A DNA stretch of 54,408 bases from Macrostomum lignano (Eukaryota). The stretch spans positions 1 to 54,408 of the forward strand of contig NIVC01004218.1 of NCBI GenBank assembly GCA_002269645.1. Direction: 5' to 3'. How positions within the stretch are numbered: the first letter of the stretch is position 1; every line of letters begins with the position of its first letter. The notes below the pieces were generated by a model, which saw nothing but the letters and a program-made list of their open reading frames with translations, was not told where the DNA came from and ran no database searches. Made by a program: the position numbers and the translations under genes. This document shows positions 1,921 to 54,408 of this stretch, in pieces.

Positions 1921-2075
1921 CTTTTAAGTAGTAAGCAGTAAGTAGTAAGTACTTTTCGGAAATATCGTAAGATTATCAGCTTAAAGTAGACGTACTTCGA
2001 AGTATTTTTTTGGGATCACCGCCAAGAATAAGCTGCATCTATATCTCATCGCTTCGAACATGGCGTCGCCAAAAG

Positions 2076-13976: not shown

Positions 13977-14067
13977 TGTGGTGGTGGCCAGGTTTGATCA
14001 CTGAATGCTGCTGTTGTGTACCGTGGGCTGCATGCAAAAAGAGGTTGGGTTTTTATGAGAGAGGCGA

Positions 14068-24685: not shown

Positions 24686-24970
24686 ATGGTAGCCATCTAT
24701 CAAGTATTTTAATTGTATACATGGCAGCTATCTAGACCTACCTAATATTCTAAATTACATATATAGCAACTGGCAGATGGGCAATATAGTGAATTGCAAA
24801 TCCAAATTAGATCTTTTCTCTCAAATCTGCATATTGCTAGGCCCTACTCTTAAACTTATTTAATAATTTATTAATTTTTTATCTCCTGTACAATATAATC
24901 TTAATTTATAGCTATTTTTGTGGCAGTTGTTATTTGTCTGGTGACTGGACGAATAGCGATGTGGTTATTT

Positions 24971-27900: not shown

Positions 27901-29391
27901 ACGTGGCACAGGCTCCAATTCGACGCGAGACTTAGCAGTTACAATTTTATAGGCAATTTTGTAGCATTGAATGCAGCTGGGTATTATTGGGAATTAGCTA
28001 CAGCATACAATGCATGCATACACGTATTGTATGAGTCATTGTATAACTGCACTCTGTTATGCAAAAGTAAAACATTATTAACAAAACATTACAGATCCGC
28101 GGACTGCACAAGTTTTTGTCGGCAGCAGCTGAATCACGAGAAGCCGCAGGCGTGCAAACTCTTGCCAAGGCCATCAGCGAGTCGGTCCAGCGGTGGTTTT
28201 CGAAAGTGCTCGAACTTTCAAACGAGGTATTCGTCATTTCAACTGTGCTGGACCCACACTACCGTACGTGTGACCTTGGATTCCAGGGAGACCCGGCCAG
28301 TGTGCTTCGTGCTCACGAAGCAGTTCTTTGTGCAGCCGGCAGAAGCAGCCCAGCAGATGACAGCGTCGAGACTGTCATAGCTGATGCTCCGAGCTACTCA
28401 GCCATTTCTTCTGCTGCTGATCATAGTGCCTTCAACCTTGAAGCCTTTGACGATTGGTCCGGTCCTGTGGGGCACAGCTCACCCAAGTTGAGGTGCCAGT
28501 CGCAAGTTTCTGCAGCTGATGAGCTGCATCGCTACACTAGTGAAGCGCCTCTGTCCAGGCCTCGAGACGCAAAAATGCAGACGGCCAACACGCTGCGCTG
28601 GTGGTCGGTGAACCGCTTTAAGTATCCGCTACTAGCCAAAGTAGCTCGGAGGTTCCTTGCCGTGCCGCCATCCAGCGCCGATTCAGAGCGGCTCTTCAGT
28701 GCAGAAAGTCTCATCGTTACGGAAAAGAGAAATCGACTTTCACCGGAGACGGCGCAAATGCTATTATTTATCGACGGAAATTTAAATATTAAAATTTAGC
28801 AATTACGCTCGTGTCTTTCACTTTTAAGTTCAGACTGTCGACCAAAAAACTCTTTTATGCATGAATTATAACTACAGTGCAATAGCTACAATTATAGCCG
28901 CGTGTACATACGACAATGCTGCAGCTAGTTACATGTACATGTACAGTTACATTACATGTACAATTCCTTCTTATTTTTACGTGTAAACTTTCTTATTTAT
29001 GTACTAACAATAGGTTTCCACCAAATGTTTAATAATACACTCATCGATTCAATGCCACAATGTTGTTTCGTATATCTTAATTGTTAAATATGTTAAACAA
29101 TTCCTTGACGAATTAAGATTACGAATACTCTAATTTGCCTTTCACTTGTATGTAGTCTTTAAGATCCTTGAAATTCTTTTCTGGAAAATTCAACGTTCAA
29201 ATTTAAGTACGTGTTCAGCCCACATAACAAATTTAATCGGAAGGTTAAGTTAATTTAATTTATTATACTAAAAACTATATAAATTCAATAATACTTAAAA
29301 CATTTCGATTTCGGAACTTTCCGAAATTGAGTTGCCCACTTTCGATTTCGATTTCGATTTCGATTGAAATTCTGCTTTCGGTCCATCTCTA
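24971..29391 (+). mobile_element. hAT DNA transposon, 4421 bp, full length
   Basis: 15-bp perfect TIR TAGAGATGGACCGAA; perfect 8-bp TSD GGTTATTT (24963-24970, 29392-29399); subterminal TTCGAT repeats at both ends; contains a transposase gene. Confidence 0.96.
25638..28799 (+). pseudogene. hAT transposase, multi-exon, frameshifted as sequenced
   Basis: BED finger (CKEC...HLKNHH), LPFTFVENPGF, catalytic-type TSDEW and VTDEG, CxxH (CTIH), TR/WDS split by an 8-bp insertion, exon ~27339-27492 (DWDLIEPL), LDPHY, and C-terminal dimerisation domain RWW...YPLLAKVARRFLAVPPSSADSERLFS. Confidence 0.88.
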
Positions 29392-32300
29392 GGTTATTTG
29401 TCCAGTTACTGGATCCTGACTATGCTTTCTTATTTATCCGGTTAATACCGGACAAATAGACATTTTGTTATTTGTCTGGTTAAATAAATTGATAATTCTA
29501 AAAATTCTTGTTCATAAAAACCACAAGGGTAAATATTCCTAGACTTTAAAGACTTCTTACTCGTATCTTGATTATTATATTGTTATACTAGTATGTGTTT
29601 TATACACCAAATTATGCCGAATTGAATACACTGCTTTGCTTACACTCTAAAGAAATAATCATCAGTATACAAGAAAAGGTCCTAAAAATCTAGAATATTC
29701 ATTACGAAACAAATAAGATACTTGTGTTAGCAATTTAACTGGACAAATAGCAAAAAGGCTATTCGTCCGGTCACCGGACAAATAACAACTGCCATTTTTT
29801 GTTAATTCAAATATTGATTTCCAATAATTCAAGCAGTATATTATAACATACATACTATATAATAAGTAAAGATGTGCCGGCCATGCATGCAATTTAAACA
29901 CTGGGTGGATGGCTGCCATGCACACTAGCTCTCTGTATAATATAATATAAGTAACTAACTACATTTTTTAAAGTAGGGCCTAGCAGTAAAAAGTTAAAAA
30001 GCAAAAAGTTTTGCTTTTACTGCATTTTTACTGCATTTTATTGTACTTTATCTTTTTCTTTAGAATGTTCTATATTTGGTAATTTGGGTAGGCCTTCTGG
30101 GTAGGTAGACTTTGAAATTATGTAGGGCCTAACTCAAGTCTGTTTAGTAAATATCTGATAATTTTTGCTTAGGCCTATTTAATTAATGCGGATTGCAGAT
30201 ATGGTTCCTAAATGCCACATGTAGTCACATCTCATGAGCTTCTTCAGCTTCGAGATCGAGAAGCTTTTAAGCTTTCAACCTAGCCTTCCTTCGCGCTAGT
30301 CATATCTACTGGTTTCTTCTCAACGTTTAAACAGGGCTTAATAAAAAAGATCCGACTTAATAGGCCCTAACGATTGCAAGCCCATAGCCATAGACCCAAA
30401 CGCCATAGGGCCTACCCTAGCTAGCTATGGGCCATGGAATTATCCTAGCCTTTAATACCACTCCCTCTATATCGCTACAAATGTCTTAAGCTTATGTCTT
30501 TACATGCTTAGTACCTCGATACCAGGCGACGGAATGGTCATCTAATCAACACACATTCAACACGGTTATAATATTGATCGTTCGTTTCGTTATACTAGAC
30601 GGGCACTGCCAGCAGCCACAATGCACCCTTTTACTTTTACTTTGATAAGTAGCTAGCGTTTCAGCCCCTAGCCGGGGCTCTACCGCTAATAATACATTAT
30701 TTAGAATCGAAATATTAATTTTACGTAGGACCTCCAACGCGTCCGACCGTGAAGCCTTTCTTCATTTTACTGTTCAAAAAGGGGGAAATTATTTCAATAA
30801 CAATAACAAATATCTAACTAATTAAAATTATGTTTAATCTAGCTTTACAAAAACTGCTTAAAACAATAAAAAGGGGCGTCAGAAAAAATTAATAAGAAAT
30901 AAAAAAATTTAAAGATTTATTACACGATAAGAACAGAAAAAGTAAAAATATTTTTCTGGTTTTTTACACTTAGGCGTGGTGGGGCTTGTGTTTAATTAAT
31001 TTAGTAAATATTTATATATATATAGATTACAGATAGTAATATTTAGATTTAGCAACGTCTGAACTTTGGCTGTCAGACTGACCAAGGATAGACTATACAT
31101 GAGAGAAATCGGGCTTCCGACTTCTAGACCGACCGGCCCATGGAGAACATATAAGTTAAAGAGGTACGCCACTCATAAAAATCGTACAAATTTCACAGGC
31201 TGGTTTTCGTTACAAAATGTGTAAACATGTCGGATTCTTTAAGTTTTTAGCAATGAATTCCCAGTAATCTCGTTTCCTGAACTTACCAAATTACAAATTG
31301 AGCAACTAACATTCTTTAGCTTTTACGCCGGCAAACATGCAGTGTACCATGTATGTTGCTTACTGTGAATGAGGTTTTAATTTTTAATAGCATTTTATAA
31401 GGTTTGTTACTTGTACACACGTACATGCACGATATGAGTAGCACTAGCAGACAGCTAGGAGTCCCGTCTCATTAGCAGGCATTCCGATGTAAGTAAAGTG
31501 ACATATACACTTTTGCTATGCAACTGATTACATACATGTACGCAGAGAGACATGTCAAGAGATGTCTAGAGATGTAGAGATTGTACATGTATGTCAAAAT
31601 ATCGGCAGTACCTAAGGTCCGTGATCAACACTTTTAGGCTACTGATGGGTTTCGACCTTTCGGCCCCCTTTTGGGGAAGCCTTCGGGCCTCAGGTCTCAG
31701 AAATAAATCGATTAGAGTCCTGACCCCCCAGCCCCATGGTAGCTTGATCGTGTGGCGAGCAGTCTAGGTCCTATAGCTAAGAGAGGGACAGCGAGAGACA
31801 TTTTGAAAATGAGATCAGCTAATCCGCAGATTAGCTAACTCGCTGCCACCAGCCCGTACGTCCTGGCTCACCACACCGGGACTCTCGAAATCGGGCTTCC
31901 GACTAGAAGGGCTGTGCACTTACCTGCCAACTAGTGTCTTTTTGCTGTCAATCTCGAAGTCATAGCCGATGATAAGGGACACTGCTAGCTGGGACTAGAT
32001 CGCATTGGCCATGCAGGTACAGAGGGGACTTGTGCAGGGGATTCTTGCAGTGGCGAGACTATGGGGTAGCTACATGTATTATTACATTGCTAAACACGAA
32101 AGATTGTACTTTTGGCCTTTAACGCGCCAACTAGCCTCTCATAGCGCTGATGATAGACTAACTCGAACATCAGAGACCGCATGATTCATCACCCGAGCCG
32201 CTTGGCTAACCTAGAGTGCACAGAGTACATCTCTGGCGCCGATTTTGCACTATTGGCAATTTCGCTAACTGATTTGATAGATTGATCGACTGAGAACTGC

Positions 32301-36709: not shown

Positions 36710-39700
36710 ATGTCTGGCTGGATTAACTCGTTCATGGGGCGTTGGCGCCTCTGGCAGCTGGAGACCCGAGTGTTGGCATCGGCCATTGCGGCCAGCCTTG
36801 GCAGCGGCCTTCTCATGGTGGTGGCGTCTTGCACCAACCACTGGGCGGACCTGTCGCTTATGACGGAGGACGGCGTCAATCTCGTCGGCTGTCAGGGCCT
36901 GTGGAAGATTAAATATCACGGTAATTTGATGCAATTAGCACTGCTGATTGTTCTGAGTGAACGCGTTGTGAAACCCTTGGCTAGCTTGAGCCGTTCACTT
37001 CAAAGCTTAAGCGTCGAGAGTCCTTGAAGCATGCAGCGTGTCACAGAACGCCACATAAGGCTATGCCCAGAGGTACATCTTTGTATACCGACTGTCCCGT
37101 GCAGCATTCCTAAGCCTGATTGTTGTAGGTGTGTAAAGCGAGAACTTCTGTAGCATAAAAGGACGCAAAACTACAAAGTCGCGTGATTTTTAGGGGAGCT
37201 ACGCTCGTAACCTTCTGGAAAAATACACTGCGGATACAGGAAAAATCCTATTTTTCGCCACAAGATTACCATTATTGTAATTTAACATGTACAAAATTTT
37301 ACTCTGTTGTGTTTTATATGGTTTTGTAGTGAAAGTTTCATTTTCATATTTTCTCTTTTAATCAAGTGTAAAGCATCATAATATGTAAAGAACAAAAGTA
37401 TTGAGTGATTCATATCATAGCACTTCTTCAAATACTTTTCAAGTATTTAAAACTCTGATGTCATTTTAGCAGGCTATTTTCGCTCCCGCTCTGACAAGGT
37501 AGTTCAGCTGTAATTGGCACTGAATTACGGTTGATTTCTGAACAATTTTCCAGAGATTAGTTCGCCCTGGCAATTTTTAATATCGGCCTCAGTTCCTTGG
37601 AATAATCTCCAGCTCCGCGAGCCGCGCACCTGCACCCAGGGTTCGGGTTCCAAAGATTGCCAGGTCGGCGACAGCTTAAGCCATGGGACAGGAGCGAAAT
37701 CTGCCGAATCTCCACGTGCCAGGCCCGCGAAAATTGGCGACGGAAAAACAATTAGCGCCAGGCCCAAATAATTGCGGGGGGCGGCCTCGCACCGCCTCGC
37801 TATTTTCTCCCTGCAGGGACTGCATGGTCGAATTTTCAAAGCAACAACCGACCAAACAACGTCTTTGCCATTTCGTGCGTCTCCCAGAGACAGCCCTAAC
37901 AGAGCCTGCAACAGGCAGCTGCGGCCACAGATGACTGTACACTACTGCTGTGCACTGCATGCGTACGCACTGATTATCCAAAGGCTTCTACACACCTTGA
38001 ACTTAAGCCTGATGCAGCAAGGCCCTGCATCAAGGTTTTGCGACCCCTGCAGATTTTTAAAAGTCAGTTTTTTACTTTAACGTACGCACAGAAAAAATGC
38101 GCCATTTTTGTTTGGGGCACGGCCTTTATTATGAAGGCCGTTAAAGTTGCAGTAAACCTCAAAAGTGTGAGCCAAAGAGCGTCGAGGTGGCCCTGTGGAC
38201 TGGCTTTGACATTTGATTTTTTATGAATTAAAGTTTTTATTAGCCTTGGGAACCTGCTATACTAACTACTGAAGTAGCTGTGATCTGACTGACTGACTGA
38301 CTAACTGACTGACTGACTGACTGACTGACTGAATGAATGACTGACTGACTGACTGACTGACTGACTAACTGACTGACTGACTGACTGACTGACTGACTGA
38401 CTGACTGACTGACTGACTGACTGACTGACTGACTGACTGACTGACTGACTGAATGAATGACTGACTGACTGACTGACTGACTGACTGACTGACTGACTGA
38501 CTGACTGACTGACTGACTGACTGACTGACTGACTGACTGACTGACTGACTGACTGACTGACTGACTGACTGACTGACTGACTGACTGACTGACTGACTGA
38601 CTGACTGACTGACTGACTGACTGACTGACTGACTGACTGACTGACTGAATGAATGACTGACTGACTGACTGACTGAATGAATGACTGACTGACTGACTGA
38701 CTGACTGAATGAATGACTGACTGACTGACTGACTGACTGACTGACTGACTGACTGACTGACTGACTGACTGACTGACTGACTGACTGACTGACTGACTGA
38801 CTGACTGACTGACTGACTGACTGACTGACTGACTGACTGACTAACTGACTGACTGACTGACTGACTGAATGAATGACTGACTGACTGACTGACTGACTGA
38901 CTAACTGACTGACTGACTGACTGACTGACTGACTGACTGACTGACTAACTGACTGACTGACTGACTGACTGACTGACTGACTGACTGAATGAATGACTGA
39001 CTGACTGACTGACTGACTGACTGACTGACTGACTGACTGACTGACTGACTGACTGACTGACTGACTGACTGACTGACTGACTGACTAACTGACTGACTGA
39101 CTGACTGACTGAATGAATGACTGACTGACTGACTGACTGACTGACTGACTGACTGACTGACTGACTGACTGACTGACTAACTGACTGACTGACTGACTGA
39201 CTGACTGACTGACTGACTGAATGAATGACTGACTGACTGACTGACTGACTGACTGACTGACTGACTGACTGACTGACTGACTGACTGACTGACTGACTGA
39301 CTGACTGACTGACTGACTGACTGACTGACTGACTGACTGACTGACTGACTGACTGACTGACTGACTGACTGACTGACTGACTAACTGACTGACTGACTGA
39401 CTGACTGACTGACTGACTGACTGACTGACTGACTGACTGACTGACTGACTGACTGACTGACTGACTGACTGACTGACTAACTGACTGACTGACTGACTGA
39501 CTGACTGACTGACTGACTGACTGACTGACTGACTGACTGACTGACTGACTAACTGACTGACTGACTGACTGACTGAATGAATGACTGACTGACTGACTGA
39601 CTGACTGACTAACTGACTGACTGACTGACTGACTGACTGACTGACTGACTGACTAACTGACTGACTGACTGACTGACTGACTGACTGACTGACTGAATGA

Positions 39701-42537
39701 ATGACTGACTGACTGACTGACTGACTGACTGACTGACTGACTGACTGACTGACTGACTGACTGACTGACTGACTGACTGACTGACTGACTGACTGACTGA
39801 CTGACTGACTGACTGACTGACTGACTGACTGACTGACTGACTGACTGACTGACTGACTGACTGACTGACTGACTGACTGACTGACTGACTGACTGACTGA
39901 CTGACTGACTGACTGACTGACTGACTGACTGACTGACTGACTGACTGACTGACTGACTGACTGACTGACTACTGACTGACTGACTGACTGACTGACTGAC
40001 TGATGAATGACTGACTGACTGACTGACTGACTGACTAACTGACTGACTGACTGACTGACTGACTGACTGACTGACTGACTAACTGACTGACTGACTGACT
40101 GACTGACTGACTGACTGACTGAATGAATGACTGACTGACTGACTGACTGACTGACTGACTGACTGACTGACTGACTGACTGACTGACTGACTGACTGACT
40201 GACTGACTGACTGACTAACTGACTGACTGACTGACTGACTGAATGAATGACTGACTGACTGACTGACTGACTGACTGACTGACTGACTGACTGACTGACT
40301 GACTGACTGACTGACTGACTGACTGACTGACTGACTGAATGAATGACTGACTGACTGACTGACTGACTGACTAACTGACTGACTGACTGACTGACTGACT
40401 GACTGACTGACTGACTGACTGACTGACTGACTGACTGACTGACTGACTGACTGACTGACTGACTGACTGACTGACTGACTGACTGACTGACTGACTGACT
40501 GACTGACTGACTGACTGACTGACTGACTGACTGACTGACTGACTGACTGACTGACTGACTGACTGACTGACTGACTGACTGACTGACTGACTGACTGACT
40601 GACTGACTGACTGACTGACTGACTGACTGACTGACTAACTGACTGACTGACTGACTGACTGACTGACTGACTGACTGACTGACTGACTGACTGACTGACT
40701 GACTGACTAACTGACTGACTGACTGACTGACTGAATGAATGAATGACTGACTGACTGACTGACTGACTGACTGACTGACTGACTGATTGACTGACTGACT
40801 GACTGACTGACTGACTGACTGACTGACTGACTGACTGACTGACTGACTGACTGACTGACTGACTGACTGACTGACTGACTGACTGACTGACTGACTGACT
40901 GACTGACTGACTGACTGACTGACTGACTGACTGACTGACTGACTGACTGACTGACTGACTGACTGACTGACTGACTGACTGACTGACTGACTGACTGACT
41001 GACTGACTGACTGACTGACTGACTGACTGACTGACTGACTGACTGACTGACTGACTGACTGACTGACTGACTGACTGACTGACTGACTGACTGACTGACT
41101 GACTGACTGACTGACTGACTGACTGACTGACTGACTGACTGACTGACTGACTGACTGACTGACTGACTGACTGAATGACTGACTGACTGACTGACTGACT
41201 GACTGACTGACTGACTGACTGACTGACTGACTGACTGACTGACTGACTGACTGACTGACTGACTGACTGACTGACTGACTGACTGACTGACTGAATGAAT
41301 GACTGACTGACTGACTGACTGACTGACTGACTGACTGACTGACTGACTGACTGACTGACTGACTGACTGACTGACTGACTGACTGACTGACTAACTGACT
41401 GACTGACTGACTGACTGAATGAATGACTGACTGACTGACTGACTGACTGACTGACTGACTGACTGACTGACTGACTGACTGACTGACTGACTGACTGACT
41501 GACTGACTGACTGAATGAATGACTGACTGACTGACTGACTGACTGACTAACTGACTGACTGACTGACTGACTGACTGACTGACTGACTGACTGACTGACT
41601 GACTGACTGACTGACTGACTGACTGACTGACTGACTGACTGACTGACTGACTGACTGACTGACTGACTGACTGACTGACTGACTGACTGACTGACTGACT
41701 GACTGACTGACTGACTGACTGACTGACTGACTGACTGACTGACTGACTGACTGACTGACTGACTGACTGACTGACTGACTGAGCCACAATGATTCGATTT
41801 GTAAACTCATTGCCACCCGCAGTGGGCGCCAAAACGTACGACTACGTGCTCGTTCACCTATTCGGCAGCGGACTGAAACGGCAGCTAGACGATCACGTGA
41901 CCAGTTGAGTAATCACTGCAGTATGGCGTTGAGTTCTATGATGGATTTTGTAATGACTAAGAGACTTACTTTACAGCATCAAAGCATTTTGAGAGCGGTA
42001 AAAGCGTCTGACTCTCGCGTCACGACCCCTGGTTTGATTCCGTGCGCGGCCCCACATTCATTTGCCCGGGCTGGTGTGCAAAAGTACACCCTGTGTGCTT
42101 GAGTGCGTGCCTGTGTACAGTATTGGCGCGCCTGCATGTGCTCGATCAGGAGTCAGCGGAATGGACAGAACTGTCTCAGCGCAGGTTGTGGGACAATGGA
42201 AGTTTGCCTAAGGCGTTGTGTCAGGCTGCCTCTCGCAATCAAAGCCATTAAAAAAAGGCCATGTTTTCTGATTCGTTGGATGGTGAAGAAAAACACATAT
42301 TTTTGGTGCAGGAAGAAAGTGGAATCAAAATGGCTCCCAAATTTTGCACTAGCGGCTAATTAGCATTTAATCAACCTTGCCCCGTTGGAACATCCGCAGC
42401 CATGCTACGCACCGCCGTGTCCTTCGTGGGCATGAGTCTGCTGATGCTGGTCCTGTCCAACCTGTTCGCCGTTTACTCGCTAAGAAATCCCAGGTTTACG
42501 TTTAAAAGGGCCGCTGCCGCTCTGTTCGGATTGACAA
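36710..42537 (+). CDS. Claudin/PMP22-family tetraspan protein, partial (two exons recognised)
   Basis: Exon 36710-36920: hydrophobic TM1, W, and GLW motif (CQGLWKI), GT donor at 36921. Exon 42400-42537 (AG/GT, phase 1): MLRTAVSFVGMSLLMLVLSNLFAVYSLRNPRFTFKRAAAALFGLT (TM2-loop-TM3). Linkage of the two exons is inferred; the TM4 exon was not found. Confidence 0.62.
38285..41782. repeat. (GACT)n microsatellite, ~3.5 kb, with AACT and GAAT variants
   Basis: Directly visible; explains the 915-aa SVSQ ORF. Confidence 0.99.
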
Positions 42538-44699: not shown

Positions 44700-45464
44700 A
44701 AACAAAACCCAACCGCAAACCAAACAGAACTGCAACAAAACACAACCGCAAACCAAACAGAACTGCAACAAAACACAACCGCAAACCAAACAGAACTGCA
44801 ACAAAACACAACCGCAAACCAAGCAGAACTGCAACAAAACACAACCGCAAACCAAACAGAACTGCAACAAAACACAACCGCAAACCAAACAGAACTGCAA
44901 CAAAACACAACCGCAAACCAAACAGAACTGCAACAAAACACAACCGCAAACCAAACAGAACTGCAACAGAACACAAACCGCAAACCAAACAGAACTGCAA
45001 CAAAACACAACCACAAACCAAACAGAACTGCAACAAAACACAACCGCAAACCAAACAGAACTGCAACAAAACACAACCGCAAACCAAACAGAACTGCAAC
45101 AGAACACAAACCGCAAACCAAACAGAACTGCAACAGAACACAACCGCAAACCAAACAGAACTGCAACAAAACACAACCGCAAACCAAACAGAACTGCAAC
45201 AGAACACAAACCGCAAACCAAACAGAACTGCAACAGAACACAAACCGCAAACCAAACAGAACTGCAACAAAACACAACCGCAGACCAAACAGAACTGCAA
45301 CAAAACACAACCACAAACCAAACAGAACTGCAACAAAACACAACCGCAAACCAAACAGAACTGCAACAAAACACAACCGCAAACCAAACAGAACTGCAAC
45401 AGAACACAAACCGCAAACCAAACAGAACTGCAACAAAACACAAACCGCAAACCAAACAGAACTG
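44700..45464. repeat. 33-bp minisatellite, ~23 copies, truncated at 45464
   Basis: AACTGCAACAAAACACAACCGCAAACCAAACAG units; the last copy stops at GAACTG. Confidence 0.96.
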
Positions 45465-45504
45465 AGTAGAAGGCATGAGGGGGCTTTTGGGACAAAATTT
45501 TTCA

Positions 45505-45718
45505 CGTCCTCCATAATCCCATTAAATCCATCTATATTATCCCCGACAGAATCAGAAAAAAGGGGGGCTGCACTTGCTCACAAAACGTCCTCCATAATCC
45601 CATTAAATCCATCCATATTATCCCTGACAGAATCAGAAAAAAGGGGGGTCGCACTCGCTCACAAAACATCCTCCATAATCCCATTAAATCCATCCATATT
45701 ATCCCTGACAGAATCAGA
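45505..45718. repeat. 81-bp repeat, ~2.6 copies, in the putative terminal region
   Basis: CGTCCTCCATAATCCCATTAAATCCAT...GACAGAATCAGA starts at 45505, 45586, 45667. Confidence 0.93.
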
Positions 45719-45926
45719 GCATAACAGGTGTCCTACTGTTATGCTCTGAGGGTTTATGCTCTAAGCATAACAGCTCCAAATCCACCCATAGCATCTTCGA
45801 AACAATCAGAAAAAATCTGCATTCTTCTCCCCACATTCAATTCGCAATTCGCAATGATCCCTAAAACTTTAAATCCCCTAACCCAGGGTCCTTACCCTTT
45901 GAAAAAAATCTAAATTTTCTCTAAAA

Positions 45927-46166
45927 ATGTTTCCAGTTGTCTCTCCAGGTTCCTATTATACACAGCCTCATCCATTGTACAAATCCAAGTACCGATGCAA
46001 ACTAGAATGCAGCGAGTACATGAGAAAATATTGGCCCGACGCTCAAATAAATGTCCCTAATATTAATCTAGCTCTCCAAAGACATTGGTTTCATAAGTAT
46101 GGAGTAACCTATGTAAAAGATTATGACAGCTACTATAACTTTGCAGAAATCATTAGGCAATTGTGA
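45927..46166 (+). CDS. Small orphan ORF of the Polinton, 79 aa
   Basis: ATG in the AAAAATG context shared by the element's other genes; ends 4 nt from the convergent mCP stop; Tyr/Trp-rich; no recognised domain. Confidence 0.55.
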   Translation: MFPVVSPGSYYTQPHPLYKSKYRCKLECSEYMRKYWPDAQINVPNINLALQRHWFHKYGVTYVKDYDSYYNFAEIIRQL

Positions 46167-46170
46167 TTTC

Positions 46171-47034
46171 TTACATTCTCTCAATGATTAACGTCAATAC
46201 AAACTCTTCACCGTTGAAATCAACACCCATCCCATCTTCAGTCTCAAACTGTAGCACAATCTCGTGAATCTCCTTATTACTCAATACAACTCTTTTCACT
46301 GGATTTGGTTTCTCTACCACCATCTGTCCTCCAGCAACAGAGTTGGAGATGTTGTACAAAATATTCGTTCGCTTTCCCTTAAATACCCAATCAAGACTGA
46401 GATTGCTTCTGATTAGAATATTCAAACCCTTTACAATGTCTGCAATATTGGGTGCTAAGAACAAACCGCTTACACTTTCCCGGACCATTCTAACAGTCCC
46501 CGATGCTTGAGTGGCGGTCCGCGCCGCGGATTCTGCCTTATAAACTTTCTTCTCGAATCCCAGTTCCCTATACCAAGTGTCATCTTTAAACTCAACCTCC
46601 GCATCTTTGTGAACTTGCATAACCACTCTCATTACAGTGAGATCATAGGTTAGTTTGACAGGGAACAGTTTCTTCTCTGGCTTACTCGCATCAGGTGTCT
46701 CAAAATGGCCTCTCTTAGTAAAGACATTTTCTAGAAAGTTATTGTAGGTATCCACACTTTGCGTGCTCACATGGAATACCACAGGGTCTGCTGCTGCACC
46801 TTTCCATTTGTAATAAAACTTATTATTTGCTGCCATCACATTGGGAACGTTTGACCAACCAGTGAAGTCGTTAAGATAGACATGGTAATTAGCGCCTGGA
46901 TCCAGGCGAATCGCCTGCTCTAATTTTTCAACAAACATCCCGTTTGAGTCATTAATTCGCCCAGTTATTGTAATAGGAATGCTCTCCTTAGAGTGAGAAA
47001 CAATATTATTTAGTCTTTCAGCAATCGCTTCCAT
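46171..47034 (-). CDS. Polinton minor capsid (penton, single jelly-roll) protein
   Basis: Adjacent to MCP; pattern AIRLD...YHVYL...SNVPNV...NNKFYY, LGF, NILYNI...GGQMVVEKP...IHEIVLQFETEDGMGVDFNGEEFVLTLII resembles Maverick PX/mCP. First ATG at 47034 (track start GTG 47043). Confidence 0.8.
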   Translation of the reverse strand: MEAIAERLNNIVSHSKESIPITITGRINDSNGMFVEKLEQAIRLDPGANYHVYLNDFTGWSNVPNVMAANNKFYYKWKGAAADPVVFHVSTQSVDTYNNFLENVFTKRGHFETPDASKPEKKLFPVKLTYDLTVMRVVMQVHKDAEVEFKDDTWYRELGFEKKVYKAESAARTATQASGTVRMVRESVSGLFLAPNIADIVKGLNILIRSNLSLDWVFKGKRTNILYNISNSVAGGQMVVEKPNPVKRVVLSNKEIHEIVLQFETEDGMGVDFNGEEFVLTLIIERM

Positions 47035-47056
47035 TTTTTTCACATAAAAAAAATAT

Positions 47057-48343
47057 TTAAACTTTACTGGATGAATTGTTGATCATGTTAAGCTTCACCT
47101 TCCTCTCAAATGCATAGATAATGTACAGGTCCACGGGTGTTGCGACAGTCCTCTCAATGTTAGTCACGATATTCACAGGGCTGTTATCAGTAGGCATTTG
47201 TCTGGCAGACACATCAGCGCCAAACATCGGATATAGAGTTCCATATTGAAGAGCAGTGATAGCAATTCCATTGTTCTCTTTCACAGCCAAGTCGACCAAC
47301 TCGCTGTAAAATTTGCTAATCTTGTTCTGACTGAAATCTCCATTTTGTGGCAGTGCAGGGTAAAGATTATCACTGATTTCATGCTGAATGGACCGAACGT
47401 CTCCATGCATGTAGCGTATAATGCTATTTGGGTTTCTCATATTAATAATGATATACCTTGGATTGCTGCATGATCCCTCTTTGATGCAGATGTTTGTTCT
47501 AGTTTCGTTTCGCTCATCTCGACACATGTAGGCCGTGTATGCAACATCAATATCCTTCTCTATTGCCTTAAGATAGTCTGCTTTTAGTGCAGTCTTTGGC
47601 TCAATGACTTCCAAATACAGCTCGATTCCGGTTAGCTTCACCTCCATCCTTGTGTGATCCGCCCCAGTCCACAACACTCTACTGCGATCATCTCTAGTCA
47701 TCCTAAAGGTGTAGCTAAAGTTACTAGTCAGTCGATTAAATTTATTACAGAATCCACTCATAAATCTCAGTGGTACAAATACATCAACAGACCGATACAG
47801 CGGGTTTTTAGCAGCATCATCAGCACCTTGCAATGCATAGTTGTATCTCTTCTTCCTCTTTTTATAGCCACTGTCATTGATGTCTCCTTCTTTTTCATCT
47901 GCAATAAAACCCGCACCACTTCCCAACTGAATAAAATCAGGATTCTCGATCAAACAATGAGCGTCATAGACAATTCCAAAGTTGGCGATTCGCTCCAACT
48001 CTGTGCTCCCATTCGATACACTAAACTCCTTGAACATGTACGCCCAAAAGTTACTGATCAGAGCCACATCCGCATCATGCTTGTCAACGTTAGCACGAGC
48101 CGCATCCGCACCACCTTTTGTCTTGAATTGAAATGTCATATGGAAGCCGCTCTTAAGACTGTGCACACTAACCAGAGACGAACATCCATTGTATGTAAAT
48201 GTCAGTGTTTGACCTGGACCCAAATTAGTTTCATTCTGGTTCTCGTGACTCGGAACTCTAACTTGTGTCGCTTTGATTGTGCTATCATCACTAAAAATAG
48301 GCTTGTTAATTTTGTAGAAAACTGGTGTCAGTGGGTCGTTCAT
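47057..48343 (-). CDS. Polinton major capsid protein (double jelly-roll), 428 aa
   Basis: Beta-rich protein of typical size; ALISNFWAYMFKEFSVSNGSTELE and VFVPLRFMSGFCNKFNRL...FRMTR match Maverick PY/MCP patterns; gene context. Confidence 0.83.
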   Translation of the reverse strand: MNDPLTPVFYKINKPIFSDDSTIKATQVRVPSHENQNETNLGPGQTLTFTYNGCSSLVSVHSLKSGFHMTFQFKTKGGADAARANVDKHDADVALISNFWAYMFKEFSVSNGSTELERIANFGIVYDAHCLIENPDFIQLGSGAGFIADEKEGDINDSGYKKRKKRYNYALQGADDAAKNPLYRSVDVFVPLRFMSGFCNKFNRLTSNFSYTFRMTRDDRSRVLWTGADHTRMEVKLTGIELYLEVIEPKTALKADYLKAIEKDIDVAYTAYMCRDERNETRTNICIKEGSCSNPRYIIINMRNPNSIIRYMHGDVRSIQHEISDNLYPALPQNGDFSQNKISKFYSELVDLAVKENNGIAITALQYGTLYPMFGADVSARQMPTDNSPVNIVTNIERTVATPVDLYIIYAFERKVKLNMINNSSSKV

Positions 48344-48373
48344 TTTTTAACTAAAAATAAAATAAAATAAGAA

Positions 48374-49528
48374 ATGAAGCGGAAAAGTTCATATCATATC
48401 TCTGAACTAGAAAAGCTGGCGCAAGCAGAGAAACGAGTTACCGGACTAATCAACAAAGAACAACAATCTTACAATGAATTCGTCCAAGCAGCCACCGAAT
48501 TTCACAAACCTGGATACACAGAAGCGAAGAAAAACATCGACACTGTGAAGGAAACAATTGATGATATTCAAGAGAGCCAATTGCAAAACACATTGGGTAA
48601 AATCCCATCTTCACCGGAACAACCACAGGCTCAGCAACCAGGACAACCAGTGCAGATGAATGTGACGGATAACTTTTTTGGCCCCGTAATGGTTGATGGA
48701 AAATATATTTTTGGAATTAGCGCCTGGCGAAAAGAAATTACCAAGGAACCGGTGGATTACAACATTGAAGTGACAAAGGAAAATATTTCAATCAATAAAG
48801 GTGTAGAAACTAAAAGAATCCCCTACACTAAAACTTTACTTGATTACATGACTAAAAATCTAGAGAAAACGTCTGAAAAGCAGCTAAAAAATTACAAAGA
48901 TCTTGTTACCTTCGCTTTAGAGAGGGACATAGACATTCTCAAGAACAACGGTGTTTTGAAAGTTTTACATGAAAACAGGATTGACTTGAACAGGTTTAGA
49001 AAATACAAATACTTTAAACAATGGTTTGGTTTGCCAGATCAGTTGGAAGTCATAAAATATCTAGAACAACAACAGCAGCAACCACAACAACAGCAACAAC
49101 CACAGCAACCACAACCTCCACAGCAACAAAAAACCCAGGTTGATCAAGTACTTGATCAACTTGACGCCGCAGAACCGATTCTTGTTTCGCAGTACAAAGA
49201 TACAAACCCTGATACTTGGCGACAATTAGAGCGGCTCTCCCCAGAACGAATGAAGCGAATCAATGACAGATTATTCACACCTCAACAAAGACAAGCGCCA
49301 CATGACAGTTCCTCCTCTGACCAATCATTCGAATCACCTCCAAGCTCTTCCGGAAAAGGCATGCCTGAATTCTACAAGCGGTTAGCTGTTCTTCTAGGAG
49401 CGGCAAAGACTGGAATGAAAGACGAGAATAGAAAAGAGTTCGTTCATATCCTAGACAAAATGCTTGAGAGAAAATGCATCGATAAAAGAGCAAGAGAACT
49501 TTTGCTTTCACGGTTTAACAAAAAATAA
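48374..49528 (+). CDS. Polinton conserved accessory protein, 384 aa, Q/P-rich tract
   Basis: Long intact ORF; C-terminal GKG-M...KRLAVLLGAAKTG...EFVHILDKMLE resembles the RLxLLxxxxxAGN...EIxxI helical motif of Maverick accessory proteins. Confidence 0.65.
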   Translation: MKRKSSYHISELEKLAQAEKRVTGLINKEQQSYNEFVQAATEFHKPGYTEAKKNIDTVKETIDDIQESQLQNTLGKIPSSPEQPQAQQPGQPVQMNVTDNFFGPVMVDGKYIFGISAWRKEITKEPVDYNIEVTKENISINKGVETKRIPYTKTLLDYMTKNLEKTSEKQLKNYKDLVTFALERDIDILKNNGVLKVLHENRIDLNRFRKYKYFKQWFGLPDQLEVIKYLEQQQQQPQQQQQPQQPQPPQQQKTQVDQVLDQLDAAEPILVSQYKDTNPDTWRQLERLSPERMKRINDRLFTPQQRQAPHDSSSSDQSFESPPSSSGKGMPEFYKRLAVLLGAAKTGMKDENRKEFVHILDKMLERKCIDKRARELLLSRFNKK

Positions 49529-49544
49529 ATTTCTATTTAAAAAG

Positions 49545-49925
49545 ATGCCAATTATTTTCGAAAAAGACATTGACAAATACTACGACAAAGAGGAACTTAA
49601 TCTCATTAAACGCGGATCTGGACTTTTCCCTGCAGGCCACTATCCAAGAAAAGAACGCTCTGGGAATGGCCTTGCTGATTTGATCGCTCAAGGGGCCAAG
49701 ATTTTTAAGGTCATTGGAGAGAACAAAGAGAACATCAAGAACGTTGCCGAAGCGGCTGGCAGTGTAGCCACAGCAGCCAAGAGGATTAAAGATACGGTTA
49801 ATGAAACCCAGAAATCAATACCAGATATTCAACCCCTTGCACTGAGTGCAGATAGTGTCGATCCAGCCATCTACGCAAAGATGAGAGCTGAATATAAGAA
49901 AGGAGGCGGTTTTAAATTTGACTAA
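49545..49925 (+). CDS. Putative virion core / membrane-lytic precursor, 126 aa
   Basis: First ATG at 49545; three GxG-hydrophobic motifs (RGSG-L, SGNG-L, KGGG-F) and an amphipathic helix LADLIAQGAKIFKVIG. Confidence 0.6.
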   Translation: MPIIFEKDIDKYYDKEELNLIKRGSGLFPAGHYPRKERSGNGLADLIAQGAKIFKVIGENKENIKNVAEAAGSVATAAKRIKDTVNETQKSIPDIQPLALSADSVDPAIYAKMRAEYKKGGGFKFD

Positions 49926-50123
49926 TTTGGTGCACCCTGACGGTAAAAGAGGTGTGAGGGTGTAGGACTAGTCGGATGTAGGACTAGTCAAAAAAAGACA
50001 CACACAACCCGAAAAAAAGACACACACATCCCGTAAAGAGACACACACATACACATCCCGCAAAGAGACACACGCGTCTTAAATACACAAGTTTAAAAAG
50101 AAAAATTTTTTTTTACATAAAAA

Positions 50124-50924
50124 ATGGACTTCACAAACGACTTTCATCCCCACTGGACACGCAATCAGATAAAATTTGCTCACAACGAGATAATTCCAGG
50201 GCATTTCCGATGCATTGTTGTTGGCTCATCTGGGTCAGGGAAAACCTTCAGAGTTTTTAACATGCTCCTCAGACCTGGATTCCTCGATTATGACACACTA
50301 CATATCTATTCACCCACTCTGTATCAAGATGAGTATAAAATGCTAGTAGCGGGCCTACAGAACAAACTCAACAAGGAAGATATTATTCAATGTTTTAGAC
50401 ATCAAAAAGACCTCAACAGCAACCCGGAAGTTGTAGCCACTGAATACGCAAAACACATCCCAGACAATGAAAAATGGCAAAACATTAAAGTTTTCACTTA
50501 TGGAGATCCACAGATAGATCCTAAAACTAAACTCTTACCTCAACCTGATGAACTAGAAAAGGGGAGAAAGCACCTGATTGTCTTTGATGACTGCATGACC
50601 GGTCCCCAGAAACAGATAGAAAATTATTTCACCCGGGGTAGACACAATAACTGCAATGTTATTTACATTGCCCAAAACTGGTTTGAACTGCCAAATAAAA
50701 CAATTAGAGGTAACTGTAATTTGATTCTCCTTTTCCCAACCATACCACAGGATCGACTGAAACGATTTTATAATGAGGTCATTGCCCCAGCTCACATTAC
50801 ATATCCAGCTAAGAACTCTAACAGAACAATATCACAGGAGGAATTTGTTAACATATGCTATGAAAAGTGGAACCAACCCTATCAGTTTGTCATGATTAAT
50901 AAGGAGAAAAGAATTTTACTTTAA
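50124..50924 (+). CDS. A32/FtsK-like DNA packaging ATPase, 266 aa
   Basis: Walker A GSSGSGKT, Walker B LIVFDD, RGRHNN arginine motif, IAQNWF, and IRGNCN. Confidence 0.93.
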   Translation: MDFTNDFHPHWTRNQIKFAHNEIIPGHFRCIVVGSSGSGKTFRVFNMLLRPGFLDYDTLHIYSPTLYQDEYKMLVAGLQNKLNKEDIIQCFRHQKDLNSNPEVVATEYAKHIPDNEKWQNIKVFTYGDPQIDPKTKLLPQPDELEKGRKHLIVFDDCMTGPQKQIENYFTRGRHNNCNVIYIAQNWFELPNKTIRGNCNLILLFPTIPQDRLKRFYNEVIAPAHITYPAKNSNRTISQEEFVNICYEKWNQPYQFVMINKEKRILL

Positions 50925-50940
50925 TTTTTTATTTAAAAAA

Positions 50941-51675
50941 ATGTCTATTAATTTTGCAGGTGAGTCAACTACAGGCAACAGCACTCTCACAACTTCCTTC
51001 CTTGATAAGCGCTACATTAACACTGATGAGGAGATCCCAGAGATCAAACTGAATAAAAACAGACTGAAACAATTAGAACGTTCCATGCACCAGTTGCAAA
51101 TGAACATGGAAGATCTCAGGCTTAAAGTAGCTAGACAGAAGTTTGACAGTGATAAGCTTTATGTGCCGTTGTTAAACGCAACTAATGAACTAAGGTCAGA
51201 AATAACTTCGATAGTCTCGCAAATCAACGGCTTAAGATCATCAGTTAATCTTCTGGGAAATTCCATTGATAGACGGATGCGTATTCTTGAAGGAGGAGTT
51301 TTCACAAACACAGCTAAAGTGAATAATTTAGAAGAGTTCATGAACCAGTCAACAGCATTGCATGATAGAATTAAAGAAAACGTCGCAACCAACACAGTTA
51401 AAGTGAGGAATTTAGAAGAGTTCATGAACCAGTCAACAGCGTTGCATGATAGAATTAAAGAAAAACTTGAAGCATTAAAGAGAAACGATGTATCACACAG
51501 TAGCTATCTAAACGGAATGTATAGCTCTTGGGGTAAAATACTAAGGAGGCTTAATCGTCTGGAGAGAACACTCAATCTTCGTGATATTGCTATTGATGAA
51601 GCAGAATCTACTGCTCGTCCGGTCGTTACTGCAGATGAAATTATCAAAAAGAAAACAGATCTTCAAACCGGGTAG
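50941..51675 (+). CDS. Coiled-coil protein, 244 aa (candidate fibre)
   Basis: Intact ORF, heptad-rich, with an internal 28-aa duplication; function inferred only. Confidence 0.6.
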   Translation: MSINFAGESTTGNSTLTTSFLDKRYINTDEEIPEIKLNKNRLKQLERSMHQLQMNMEDLRLKVARQKFDSDKLYVPLLNATNELRSEITSIVSQINGLRSSVNLLGNSIDRRMRILEGGVFTNTAKVNNLEEFMNQSTALHDRIKENVATNTVKVRNLEEFMNQSTALHDRIKEKLEALKRNDVSHSSYLNGMYSSWGKILRRLNRLERTLNLRDIAIDEAESTARPVVTADEIIKKKTDLQTG

Positions 51676-51709
51676 TTTTGTAATTTTTTTATTTTTTCTA
51701 GAGAAAAAA

Positions 51710-52422
51710 ATGGCCCAACAAAATTCTCTATACGATCAGTCTCAATACGTTGAACCTAAAATACCGACAGCACCAAACCCAATGGCACCGAATTCGAACA
51801 CACAAAGCCTGGCACCGAATCTGAATGCACCCAATATGAGCAGCAAAAACTCTACCCCGTCATTACTTGTAACTCTCAACAGTTTTGACTGGTGGAGATT
51901 CAAAAAATGCGCGATGATCTTGAAAAAATTATTTTCCACAACACAAAGAAAATTAAGCGCTATGACAACCACTGTAAATTTTTCGACTACAGCAATATGA
52001 TTCTAGGATCTGTGTCTGTTCTAACTGGGTCTGCTGCAGCTGTCTCAGTGTTGCTAGTCATCACAGCCCCAATCGCAATCCCGCTCGGCTCTGTGGGTGC
52101 TGCATGTGGACTTATTTCAGCAATTACTGGAGCAGTAGCGCGAAACAGGCGAAAAAAACTAAAGCAGCTACAGGAGAAGCAAGTAAAAGAGAAAGGAGTG
52201 CACACTTCAATCATAGGGTACATTTCAAGGGCAATCGAGGATAAGCTCATTTCAGAGGATGAGTTCAAAACCATTCAGGATCTTTATGAACAATCAATTC
52301 GAATGAACTTGAACATGGTCGGTACTGATGACATGAGTCAGCTGAAAAATGAACTCGAGAAAGTTTTTCAACATTATGCGGAAAGAAAGTCGGCAAGAAG
52401 AACGGTGAGAAATGCACAATGA
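51710..52422 (+). CDS. Polinton two-TM membrane protein (GasderminX-like), apparently frameshifted near 51887
   Basis: Pro-rich N-terminus from ATG 51710; C-terminal ORF 51892-52422 has a hydrophobic hairpin (MILGSVSVLTGSAAAVSVLL/ITAPIAIPLGSVGAACGLISAI) and ISRAIEDKLISEDEFKTI, typical of this Maverick family. Confidence 0.65.
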
Positions 52423-52426
52423 ACCC

Positions 52427-52826
52427 CTATGAAACACAGGTACGAATAATTTCCTTGTAGGTCTTTCGTGTTTTGGTCATTGCATACAAAACAGTCATGC
52501 ACAGCTCACCGCAAATATCACTGCTAAGACCTTGAAGAATAAAGTCTGAGTGGTAAATTTTTTTATTATTTTCCCCTTCATATAATTTCTTAGCTCTTCT
52601 GGTACTGCCGTCCCATAGCTATCAAAGTAATAACACTTGTGCTTGCGATCGGGATCAATCACCCAGCAAACCAATGAGATCCTGGCTTATCGGTGGTGTC
52701 AAAGTTCATGATGCCGCATTCCTTTCTTAGAGGAAAATCAGGCAGAGTGTCCCTCATAAATATTCCTCTAAAGTTTGGGATTTCCAGTTCGTTAGCCAAA
52801 TCTTCAAGAAAGTTATTTGTCGTCAT
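52427..52826 (-). CDS. Adenain-like (C5/Ulp1-fold) cysteine protease, two -1 frameshifts as sequenced
   Basis: ATG 52826; FRGIFMRD...ECGIMNFD...GSHW | W...YYFDSYG | LQ...SDICGELC...stop at 52429-52427. H, D, Q and C catalytic residues are present; restoring 2 nt gives 133 aa. Confidence 0.85.
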
Positions 52827-52890
52827 TTTTATGTCACATTTTATGAGGTTTATTAAACTTTCTCTTAAACCTAAACCCAATCTCCACCTC

Positions 52891-54408
52891 CTAAACCCAA
52901 CCTCCTAAGCCTAATCTCCAATGCCCGAACGGCAGACTGTTGATATTGTCATCAAAAATGAATCTCTTGTTATCTGCACCTGACAGTCCAATCTTCTTTT
53001 GCTGAATTGTGTGAATAATATGGTTTTTAGATTGTAGCTTTGAGAACTCATGAGATGTCTTTTTGTTGCAATTCAAGGCGTCTCTGTATTCAGCTTCATT
53101 AATTTCCTTCCTAACCACACGTTTCGGAATTCCCTTTGATTTTTTAATTGGGTCTGACGACTCACATTTTACAAAATAGGACTTTGCTCTCAACCCAATG
53201 AATTCAGTGATTATGTCACCAGCAATCTCGTCCTTCATTTTCCCAATCACTTTCTTGTTAGTGGCGTCAAACACTTGATCGCCCTTCTGTGTCCTGCAAG
53301 ATTCATCATACTCAGACAAGTCAAACAAATCTTTTTGCTGCAGCATGTCCTGATAAATGTCTTCTGTTTGAATGTCCATAATAAAACTGTCTGTGTCAGT
53401 GTACAAGAGTTTCATTTTATCCTTGTACTGCTGCTTCATGCCATAGAAGAACTGGTACATCAGACGTTTTGATTCGTCGAGTACAGTGACACCTGTATAG
53501 ATCGGCTTGCGCAGCGTCACCTTAGTTTTGTAAAATATGATCACACCTAAGTAGCTATTAAAGATATGGAGTTCTTTGAATGTTGGCTTTGACATATTTG
53601 CCTGAATAACAGCAGGCTCTGATGAGGTAACAAGTTTCAGGTTTGTTCTTTTCCGCTCATTTTCAAGAGTCTTGCCATAGACAGAGTTGTTGGCTAACTT
53701 AAAGAGGTTCTTGTCAAAGTCGTTGGTTGCTTTGGTCCTAAACTTGGTGTTCATATCAATGTAGGGTTTCATCCACGCTTCCTCTGTAAATGTAAGAGCC
53801 CGGTGAACTTTGGTGACCCTGCAACCAAGTGAGATAAAATACTGAAGCAGTTTGTAATGGATTTTGTAACGTGTCTTGTTGTTTAGATTCTGTGTTAGTT
53901 TCTCTGTATGTTCTTTTTCTGTTCCTGACAGGTGCCAAGTTCCATTAATATCATTGGGAGTTTCGATTATTTTCGGGCACTTGATGTTCTCTGGGAAGGG
54001 TGGAAAGTCAGAGAAATAGTCGTGAAGCTCTGGTGGAATGTAAACATCAACCTCATAAATGGCAGCCAATGAAAAGTCCCATTTGAATTCTGATGAGGGT
54101 AGCCATCGAAAATCTCTAACTGGAAGATCTTGACTCATCGCCCACCCGTAGAGATTATTAGCGTCCAAGTAAGTAATGTAGTTTGAGGGCTGCTCCTTAT
54201 TGTAAGATTCAATGTAGGGATTGTTTGCTTTTGCATACCTGTTAACGCAAATTGAGATTCCCCCTCGCTTTGACGATTCGACAAAATTGTACATGTCAAT
54301 GTCTGTAAGAAGTTCAATGTACCAATCTGGATCTTGATCCCATTTCATTTTAAGCAAAGATTCCGCTGGTGCAGGCAGAGACACATAATGTGCTGGATCG
54401 AGGCCATA
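52891..54408 (-). CDS. Protein-primed family B DNA polymerase, C-terminal part (5' end beyond the window)
   Basis: Frame open to the window edge (YGLDPAHY); motif A YLDANNLYGWAMSQDLP, motif B KLANNSVYGK, motif C YTDTDS, plus GKMKDE, EFIGLRAKSY and KSKGI. Confidence 0.95.
   Translation of the reverse strand, partial: YGLDPAHYVSLPAPAESLLKMKWDQDPDWYIELLTDIDMYNFVESSKRGGISICVNRYAKANNPYIESYNKEQPSNYITYLDANNLYGWAMSQDLPVRDFRWLPSSEFKWDFSLAAIYEVDVYIPPELHDYFSDFPPFPENIKCPKIIETPNDINGTWHLSGTEKEHTEKLTQNLNNKTRYKIHYKLLQYFISLGCRVTKVHRALTFTEEAWMKPYIDMNTKFRTKATNDFDKNLFKLANNSVYGKTLENERKRTNLKLVTSSEPAVIQANMSKPTFKELHIFNSYLGVIIFYKTKVTLRKPIYTGVTVLDESKRLMYQFFYGMKQQYKDKMKLLYTDTDSFIMDIQTEDIYQDMLQQKDLFDLSEYDESCRTQKGDQVFDATNKKVIGKMKDEIAGDIITEFIGLRAKSYFVKCESSDPIKKSKGIPKRVVRKEINEAEYRDALNCNKKTSHEFSKLQSKNHIIHTIQQKKIGLSGADNKRFIFDDNINSLPFGHWRLGLGGWV

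Follow-up and report, generated by a model that had tools for sequence, protein, structure and literature searches.

Capsid, packaging and terminal modules are shuffled among copies of a Polinton/Maverick family in Macrostomum lignano

We have analyzed a stretch of DNA of 54,408 nucleotides from Macrostomum lignano (assembly GCA_002269645.1, contig NIVC01004218.1), referred to below as the window; it is the whole of contig G000 C4218. The window holds the left part of one Polinton/Maverick insertion of the adintovirus type, a member of a family of about 240 young insertions, and the contig end falls inside the gene for a DNA polymerase of family B that is protein-primed (PolB). The reading that we consider probable is that this is a single integrated copy, likely defective, and that the copies of the family combine, in mosaic fashion, modules for capsid, packaging and termini that diverged deeply; these copies likely derive from a recently integrated, recombining population of capsid-forming viruses. 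It builds on what we observe directly, namely the gene set, the protein folds, the terminal repeats, the 6-bp target duplications, the copy number, the mosaic structure and purifying selection.

The mosaic structure emerges from comparison of 25 regions carrying the family, 24 of them two-ended; 19 were picked by the terminus alone and 5 by the similarity of their packaging ATPase to that of the window. The genes for PolB, protease, pX and the membrane protein (TM) form one cluster each at a 4.5% single-linkage cut. The capsid pair, by contrast, exists as two types (A and B) in which the penton and the major capsid protein (MCP) are 24% and 21% apart, and the two genes were linked in all 23 copies holding both. 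The core protein and the ATPase also come as two types, 12% and 21% apart and always linked. Among the 25, the combinations of capsid with ATPase type are AA in 10, AB in 11, BB in 3 and BA in 1, and the borders between blocks can be traced along its sequence. Recombination is needed to set such deeply diverged blocks into a backbone that is otherwise nearly the same, with or without the BA copy.

The two capsid types are deeply diverged. Between them the ratio of nonsynonymous to synonymous divergence (dN/dS) is 0.065 for the MCP and 0.043 for the penton, with dS above 1.5 and thus near saturation. In a tree of 24 proteins with a midpoint root, types A and B are sisters relative to the environmental relatives described below, with 100/100 support. 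This grouping suggests that both types have likely coexisted for a long time in this lineage.

The termini are mixed as well. An open reading frame (ORF) of 79 amino acids, which the preliminary description had treated as an orphan, turned out to be part of the terminal repeat and is present at both ends in 17 of the 24 two-ended copies; it is likely a real gene. The two ends differ by 5-17% in 12 of these 17 copies and by at most 0.9% in the other 5. Differing ends resemble random pairs (median 12%), and 22 of the 34 ends are nearer to a foreign end than to their own partner. Such divergence is far above decay since insertion. All 12 copies with unlike ends have a target-site duplication (TSD) with 0-1 mismatch, which excludes simple crossing-over between insertions; gene conversion after insertion is a possible source of the unlike ends. 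The outermost 38 bases are identical at both ends in 19 of 24 copies and one base off in the remaining 5. A few copies carry long near-perfect repeats (1,124 bp, and 4,755 bp at 99.6%) containing gene pieces from the other end, and one copy is a 4.75-kb palindrome. Adenoviruses have linear genomes that need only a matching terminal origin, that recombine, and that sometimes copy one end from the other. By this analogy, the pattern of ends would fit linear genomes matching only at the terminal origin, recombining, and sometimes copying one end.

How large is the family? The 20-nt terminus has 489 exact matches in the genome (248 on the plus and 241 on the minus strand) against none for a reversed control, and we therefore estimate about 240 elements. 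Of the 100 matches at the head of the list, 56 could be joined into 28 pairs, 21 of which span at least 14.7 kb (17 at 14.7-20.1 kb), with 5 under 4 kb. A 6-bp TSD was sought in 24 copies, omitting the nested copy C27; 16 copies carry an exact one, 4 a version with a single mismatch and 4 none, and no exact duplication was found at 5, 7 or 8 bp. The palindromic copy C276 was omitted from gene counts, and C28, whose contig ends inside the copy, was used for terminus analysis only. Gene order is conserved across the family, and nearest-neighbor copies differ by 1.4-4.6%.

Variants common to at least three copies have dN/dS of 0.08 with no stops, while private variants have dN/dS of 0.38. For the shared variants the values are 0.05 for the MCP, 0.10 for the penton and 0.13 for PolB. 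Since shared variants are constrained and private ones relaxed, we infer that selection acted during replication and that decay began after insertion. The same argument has been made for vertebrate Mavericks (PMC8097293; here and below, statements on cited papers refer to the parts of them that were available). Purifying selection on the capsid genes supports a capsid function for the family, as judged from the pattern of substitutions.

Reduced forms of the element, 0.6-3.6 kb long, retain its two ends within a 6-bp TSD (one mismatch in C32); they lie at G000 C124:22982-23697, C289:58541-59180, C32:1150965-1151833 and in C544. The hexamer at the target is identical in C124 and C289, and these two may represent a single insertion that appears two times in the assembly. 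Nested copies also occur, in which family members lie inside other copies or inside the polymerase region of another family (G000 C27, C273, C4149 and C5061; L081).

The features of the window copy are collected in Table 1.

Table 1. Features of the insertion and its left flank, in window coordinates
Feature	Position	Strand	Remarks
Host 33-bp tandem satellite, insertion target	44701..45464		Resumes past the right end in three other contigs
6-bp target-site duplication, left copy	45459..45464	+	Same 6 bases flank the insertion in G000 C4576; C4147 and C2701 have them next to the right end
Left terminal inverted repeat region	45465..46166		Terminus, 81-bp subterminal repeats (45504-45718), 79-aa ORF; 86% over 556 bp versus own right end
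79-aa ORF in terminal repeat	45927..46166	+	Open in 40/42 ends read; dN/dS ~0.2 on shared variants; no family match
Minor capsid protein (penton), type A, 287 aa	46171..47034	-	Model pLDDT (predicted local distance difference test) 74; mavirus penton E 3.7e-10
Major capsid protein (MCP), double-jelly-roll (DJR), 428 aa	47057..48343	-	PF21738 E 5.5e-5, below cut-off; structure matches
384-aa accessory ORF, Q/P-rich tract	48374..49528	+	Most variable internal gene; no credible family match
126-aa basic ORF, predicted virion core protein	49545..49925	+	Gly-rich protease-site-like motifs; inherited with ATPase type
A32/FtsK-type packaging ATPase, type A	50124..50924	+	PF04665 E 7.5e-7, above cut-off; Walker A and B motifs
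244-aa coiled-coil ORF with 84-bp internal repeat	50941..51675	+	Generic coiled-coil matches only
Membrane-protein (TM) gene, putatively SLATT/GasderminX-like	51710..52422	+	SLATT_1 E 0.0097, weak; frameshift near 51,830
Adenain/Ulp1-type maturation protease gene	52427..52826	-	Frameshifts near 52,670 and near 52,570
Protein-primed PolB, 3' part	52891..54408	-	Cut by contig end; polymerase motifs present

An earlier claim, that this is a Polinton/adintovirus-like endogenous virus, was borne out by the gene set, the folds, the terminal repeats and the 6-bp target duplication. The start of the element at 45,465 coincides exactly with the terminus, the order and strands of the ORFs stand as first described, and the intergenic gaps are short, 6 of the 9 gaps between ORFs being 4-30 bp. 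The identities proposed for the MCP, penton, ATPase, protease and PolB hold, on the strength of domain matches and folds. Both capsid ORFs, for which a failure to model as jelly-rolls had been named as a refuting result, gave the expected folds: the MCP models as a double jelly-roll and the 287-aa ORF as a penton. The MCP model (pLDDT 51) matches the Sputnik MCP with E 1.4e-10 and the faustovirus MCP with Z 10.8 and a root-mean-square deviation of 6.5 over 313 aligned residues, and all 23 structures shown in the search with this model are DJR capsid structures. The penton model gave Z of 12.7-13.1 against the mavirus penton and a PBCV-1 capsid chain; the Sputnik and adenovirus pentons also match.

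For the protease, the identity comes from another copy, with matches to PF00770 (C5 protease) at E 3.6e-4, just under the cut-off, and to adenain at E 0.006. PolB has 4,496 relatives, the best 120 of which are 42-46% identical; five among these 120 carry names, from sponge, corals, dragonfly and sea slug. In another copy the N-terminal part of PolB matches PF03175 (E 3.1e-9, above the cut-off, over the exonuclease part) and an endonuclease VII domain, and by eye its N-terminus, where Polintoviricetes carry terminal-protein and vOTU domains, has Cys and His in vOTU-like contexts; the 505-aa polymerase half has no Pfam match. Other copies add an rve integrase (PF00665, E 5.3e-10), a PLA2 gene (PF08398, E 1.7e-13) and a pX-like gene (PF05829, E 4.7e-7). 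The PLA2 protein of another copy has no pX match, pX being encoded by a separate gene. The 126-aa ORF is predicted to encode a virion core protein, and its Gly-rich motifs resemble protease sites. The TM gene has unnamed look-alikes at 0.94 in Atlas and a weak SLATT_1 match, and GasderminX is a tentative label. PHROGs and NCBIfam offered no useful family for the accessory genes, and a sequence search of the PDB did not identify the ATPase.

As first noted, there is no integrase in the window, which stops at the contig end inside PolB. The rest of the insertion is found in other contigs. The right end, together with the target site of the window and its satellite, is present in three other contigs. 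In C4576 both ends are found, 14,209 bp apart and flanked by the same 6-bp duplication, and the sequence is 99.3% identical to the window over 13 kb including the flank. Past the point where the window stops, C4576 continues with the rest of PolB, a pX-like gene, an integrase of the rve type and a truncated PLA2 gene. That one host locus appears in four contigs (G000 C4218, C4576, C4147 and C2701) points to haplotigs or duplicated chromosome segments. A nested second copy was considered as the cause of the contig end and rejected; C4149 and C5061 do contain junctions of that kind, but two assemblies of this insertion read through PolB. The proposal of a recent integration is supported by the target duplication and by the similarity between copies.

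Is the window copy intact? It had been called near-intact, with open ORFs, and possibly virion-competent. As assembled, however, the protease is spread over three frames and the TM gene over two, so that the 171-aa TM ORF is only the 3' part of a frameshifted gene. Over 13.0 and 6.9 kb the window agrees at 99.3-99.5% with independent assemblies of its insertion, and these allow the breaks to be compared. The protease break near 52,570 is present in three of three assemblies, that near 52,670 in one of three, and the TM break near 51,830 in two of three. In C4576 the PLA2 gene breaks off at roughly codon 117 out of 159, and it is truncated in both assemblies that cover it. Because the 52,570 break recurs in every assembly, the window copy is likely defective in cis, and the suggestion of virion competence does not stand for this copy alone. 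Could the breaks instead all be assembly errors, leaving a copy that is intact and self-sufficient for virions? Indel noise is real, with 14 indels against 10 substitutions over 8,928 columns between assemblies of the same insertion (25 against 12 and 34 against 19 in the other comparisons), and two of the three breaks are absent from some assemblies. Nevertheless the shared protease break and the PLA2 truncation make an intact copy most improbable.

For the family as a whole many frameshifts are likely to be assembly errors, since the family rate of 0.6 per kb lies within the between-assembly noise, which in the closest pair is about 0.8 per kb for each member. Private frameshifts number 143 and private substitutions 978 over the 228,792 bases aligned across 24 copies, and the two are uncorrelated (rho -0.15, p 0.47). 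Private 1-bp deletions fall in homopolymers in 54 of 104 cases against a background of 36%, a modest enrichment.

From its genes, the cycle of such a virus might run as follows. The protein-primed polymerase would copy linear genomes from their ends; the ATPase would package them into double-jelly-roll shells capped by penton; the protease would mature the particles; PLA2 and pX-like proteins would aid passage across membranes; and the rve integrase would insert the genome through a 6-bp staggered cut. Genomes replicating together would recombine in conserved stretches, so shuffling modules and pairing unlike ends, and now and then one end would be copied from the other, which would bring back long perfect repeats. 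The window copy would need protease from another copy. The virions of the family are thus a prediction from its genes.

A number of observations weigh against a recombining, capsid-forming virus population as the source of the family. No particle, free genome or protein has been observed. Purifying selection reports past function and not present activity. As assembled, none of the 24 copies has all 12 genes open, PolB is interrupted in 22 of 22 full-length copies, and some of this decay is real, with 30 private stops and multi-kb insertions inside genes. The MCP model is of low confidence. The sample is about 30 of the roughly 240 elements, and a single copy, itself picked by its ATPase similarity, shows the BA combination. 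Finally, gene conversion between chromosomal copies could also yield mosaics and unlike ends. This last point is the core of an alternative that we regard as unlikely though not negligible, in which the family at present moves as an intracellular self-synthesizing transposon that makes no particles. The short internally deleted copies with TSDs indicate movement without capsid genes in cis, a high copy number favors ectopic conversion, and the lack of observed particles is as expected. Yet the capsid genes are constrained like the replication genes in their shared variants, and most of the paired termini (the 21 of 28 noted above) lie at least 14.7 kb apart. The right end is also 100% identical over 1,400 bp between two assemblies of the insertion, a weak sign against later conversion.

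Might the mosaics and unlike ends have been created when a repeat with so many copies was assembled? Noise is present within these repeats, several contigs end inside copies, and a matching TSD is lacking from 4 of the 24. But no more than about 1 kb separates the unlike ends from unique flanks, whose TSDs match, and the independent assemblies agree closely with the window. The module types are moreover discrete and under purifying selection, so both must be real sequences. We judge this explanation highly improbable, and retain the recombining virus population as the probable source of the mosaics.

A further variable region of 0.1-2.6 kb lies between PLA2 and the right repeat, and contains several unrelated or remote ORFs. 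For one gene family of this slot the genome contains 119 matches, with identities of 22-100%, some of them apparently in two exons; in one copy the split has GT-AG ends. The terminal slot of the copy in G000 C51 (L022) holds a gene with a predicted spliceosomal intron, and its close relatives in other copies are intronless. Members of the slot family are also present in other, distant Polinton families of the same genome. In a quick tree the slot genes are interleaved between Polinton families, with at least four label changes forced by strong branches; the labels did not cluster significantly, since 63 of 500 shuffles gave a value as low. Recent exchange of slot genes at the DNA level with other Polinton families was not found, the only other match being 67%. 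A 92% match at C13 was rejected as evidence of exchange, because it adjoins a diverged end of the same family. Slot families A3 and A4 gave only a weak match to each other (hhalign probability 30%), and a sequence search of the PDB did not identify the slot family. Weak, single-member helix-turn-helix matches lead us to guess that the slot gene might be a DNA-binding regulator.

Two more distant Polintons were met in this genome, one of 20.5 kb in G000 C2379 (L087, L105, L106) and one of 18.3 kb in C13 (L110, L109, L091). They have terminal inverted repeats (TIRs) of about 350 and 310 bp, 6-bp TSDs and different termini, and one of their ORFs has an F5/8 type C domain. Much of their length is 85-91% identical in DNA sequence, the polymerase region excepted, a pattern that suggests replicase replacement.

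The class of the element is ordinary. Polintons and Mavericks (Polintoviricetes) share protein-primed PolB, rve integrase, packaging ATPase, Ulp1/adenain protease, DJR MCP, penton, TIRs and a 6-bp TSD (PMC11161782, PMC8097293); PolB, integrase, DJR capsid, penton, ATPase, protease and terminal repeats with TSD were all found in this family, and its size lies within the 12.7-24.6 kb range of intact vertebrate elements given in those papers. Differences from vertebrate Mavericks as described in PMC8097293 are several. Their genes form two convergent modules, PolB-ATPase-PZ and INT-penton-PW-MCP-protease, an order not followed here; their end motif is (AGT)2 or (AG)3, whereas this family has AGTAGA, which is neither; and their median copy number is 8, with a maximum of 287, all defective, compared with about 240 here. 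The Alpha and Beta adintoviruses (PMC8502044) have this core complement and, in addition, PLA2, a pX-like gene and a membrane-active gene. The PolB of our family may be of the divergent, Beta-like kind, given its weak PF03175 match. Beta adintoviruses also carry GasderminX and Cupiennin genes; what bears on these here is the weak SLATT match of the TM gene and the PF05829 match of the pX-like gene. PLA2 is a hallmark of the Alpha module, and the hybrid described in that paper is the reverse pairing. The pairing of a putatively Beta-like PolB with PLA2 would be unlike its Alpha and Beta hallmarks. In the Alpha adintoviruses PLA2X joins a PLA2 domain to a C-terminal pX; in this family the pX match was seen on a separate gene. 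Against adintovirus/MELD entries, the best structure matches reach an identity of no more than about 9%.

That co-resident elements exchange modules is likewise known, from nematode Polintons with exchanged polymerases (10.1101/2023.08.22.554363) and from mosaic Polisuviricotina (10.64898/2026.10.13.758929), so that polymerase swaps and mosaicism between replicase and morphogenesis modules are already published. In those cases, as far as the available parts of the papers go, the replicase is swapped relative to the morphogenesis module. In this family, by contrast, shuffling occurs inside the morphogenesis module, the capsid pair against the ATPase and core protein, and between the ends, on one polymerase backbone. 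Shuffling of capsid against ATPase, or unlike ends, within one genome was not described in the titles and abstract openings searched, a weak negative given partial coverage of the literature; a survey of 7,103 assemblies (10.1101/2025.04.19.649669) may already list these regions. Environmental relatives (P0001-P0009, P0143), which are short unannotated contigs, have MCP identities of 71-77% (7 proteins) or 42-44% (3 proteins), all others being at most 27%. In IMG/VR, 167 pattern matches included no relative.

To the left of the element lies eukaryotic DNA with many satellites. It includes a cyclic-nucleotide-binding exon (1971-2315, plus strand), a cullin gene whose exons, at least five in number, are separated by minisatellite arrays (8287-13997, minus strand), a ubiquitin-conjugating enzyme ORF (19188-19721, minus strand) and a hAT transposon remnant (24921-29794) with its dimerization domain at 28071-28796 between inverted arms. 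A four-base microsatellite of 3.5 kb (38285-41782; 875 units at 97%) is the source of long spurious ORFs. Twenty runs from 8 studies of one organism contain the window stretch, whole or in part. None of them is listed as RNA; two runs only guessed to be RNA cover 29 of 30 and 30 of 30 bins with the non-coding ends included, and nothing on expression follows.

Maverick particles were unobserved as of 2021 and had been inferred from selection, and the genomes with the highest copy numbers held only defective elements (PMC8097293). With about 240 copies of low divergence and constrained capsid genes, M. lignano is a natural place to seek free genomes and particles. Recombination inside the morphogenesis module and between the ends bears on the identity of ends in protein-primed linear genomes, and the shuffling of modules bears on how far capsid and packaging motor need to be co-adapted. 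A bolder reading, which we offer tentatively, is that the host carries a still-active, particle-forming Polinton virus, the insertions being a snapshot of a recombining swarm in which two long-coexisting capsid types pair freely with two motors, unlike-ended genomes replicate and integrate, and the terminal slot trades accessory genes with co-resident Polinton families. If this were so, the virions of an animal Polinton, and their recombination, would be directly observable.

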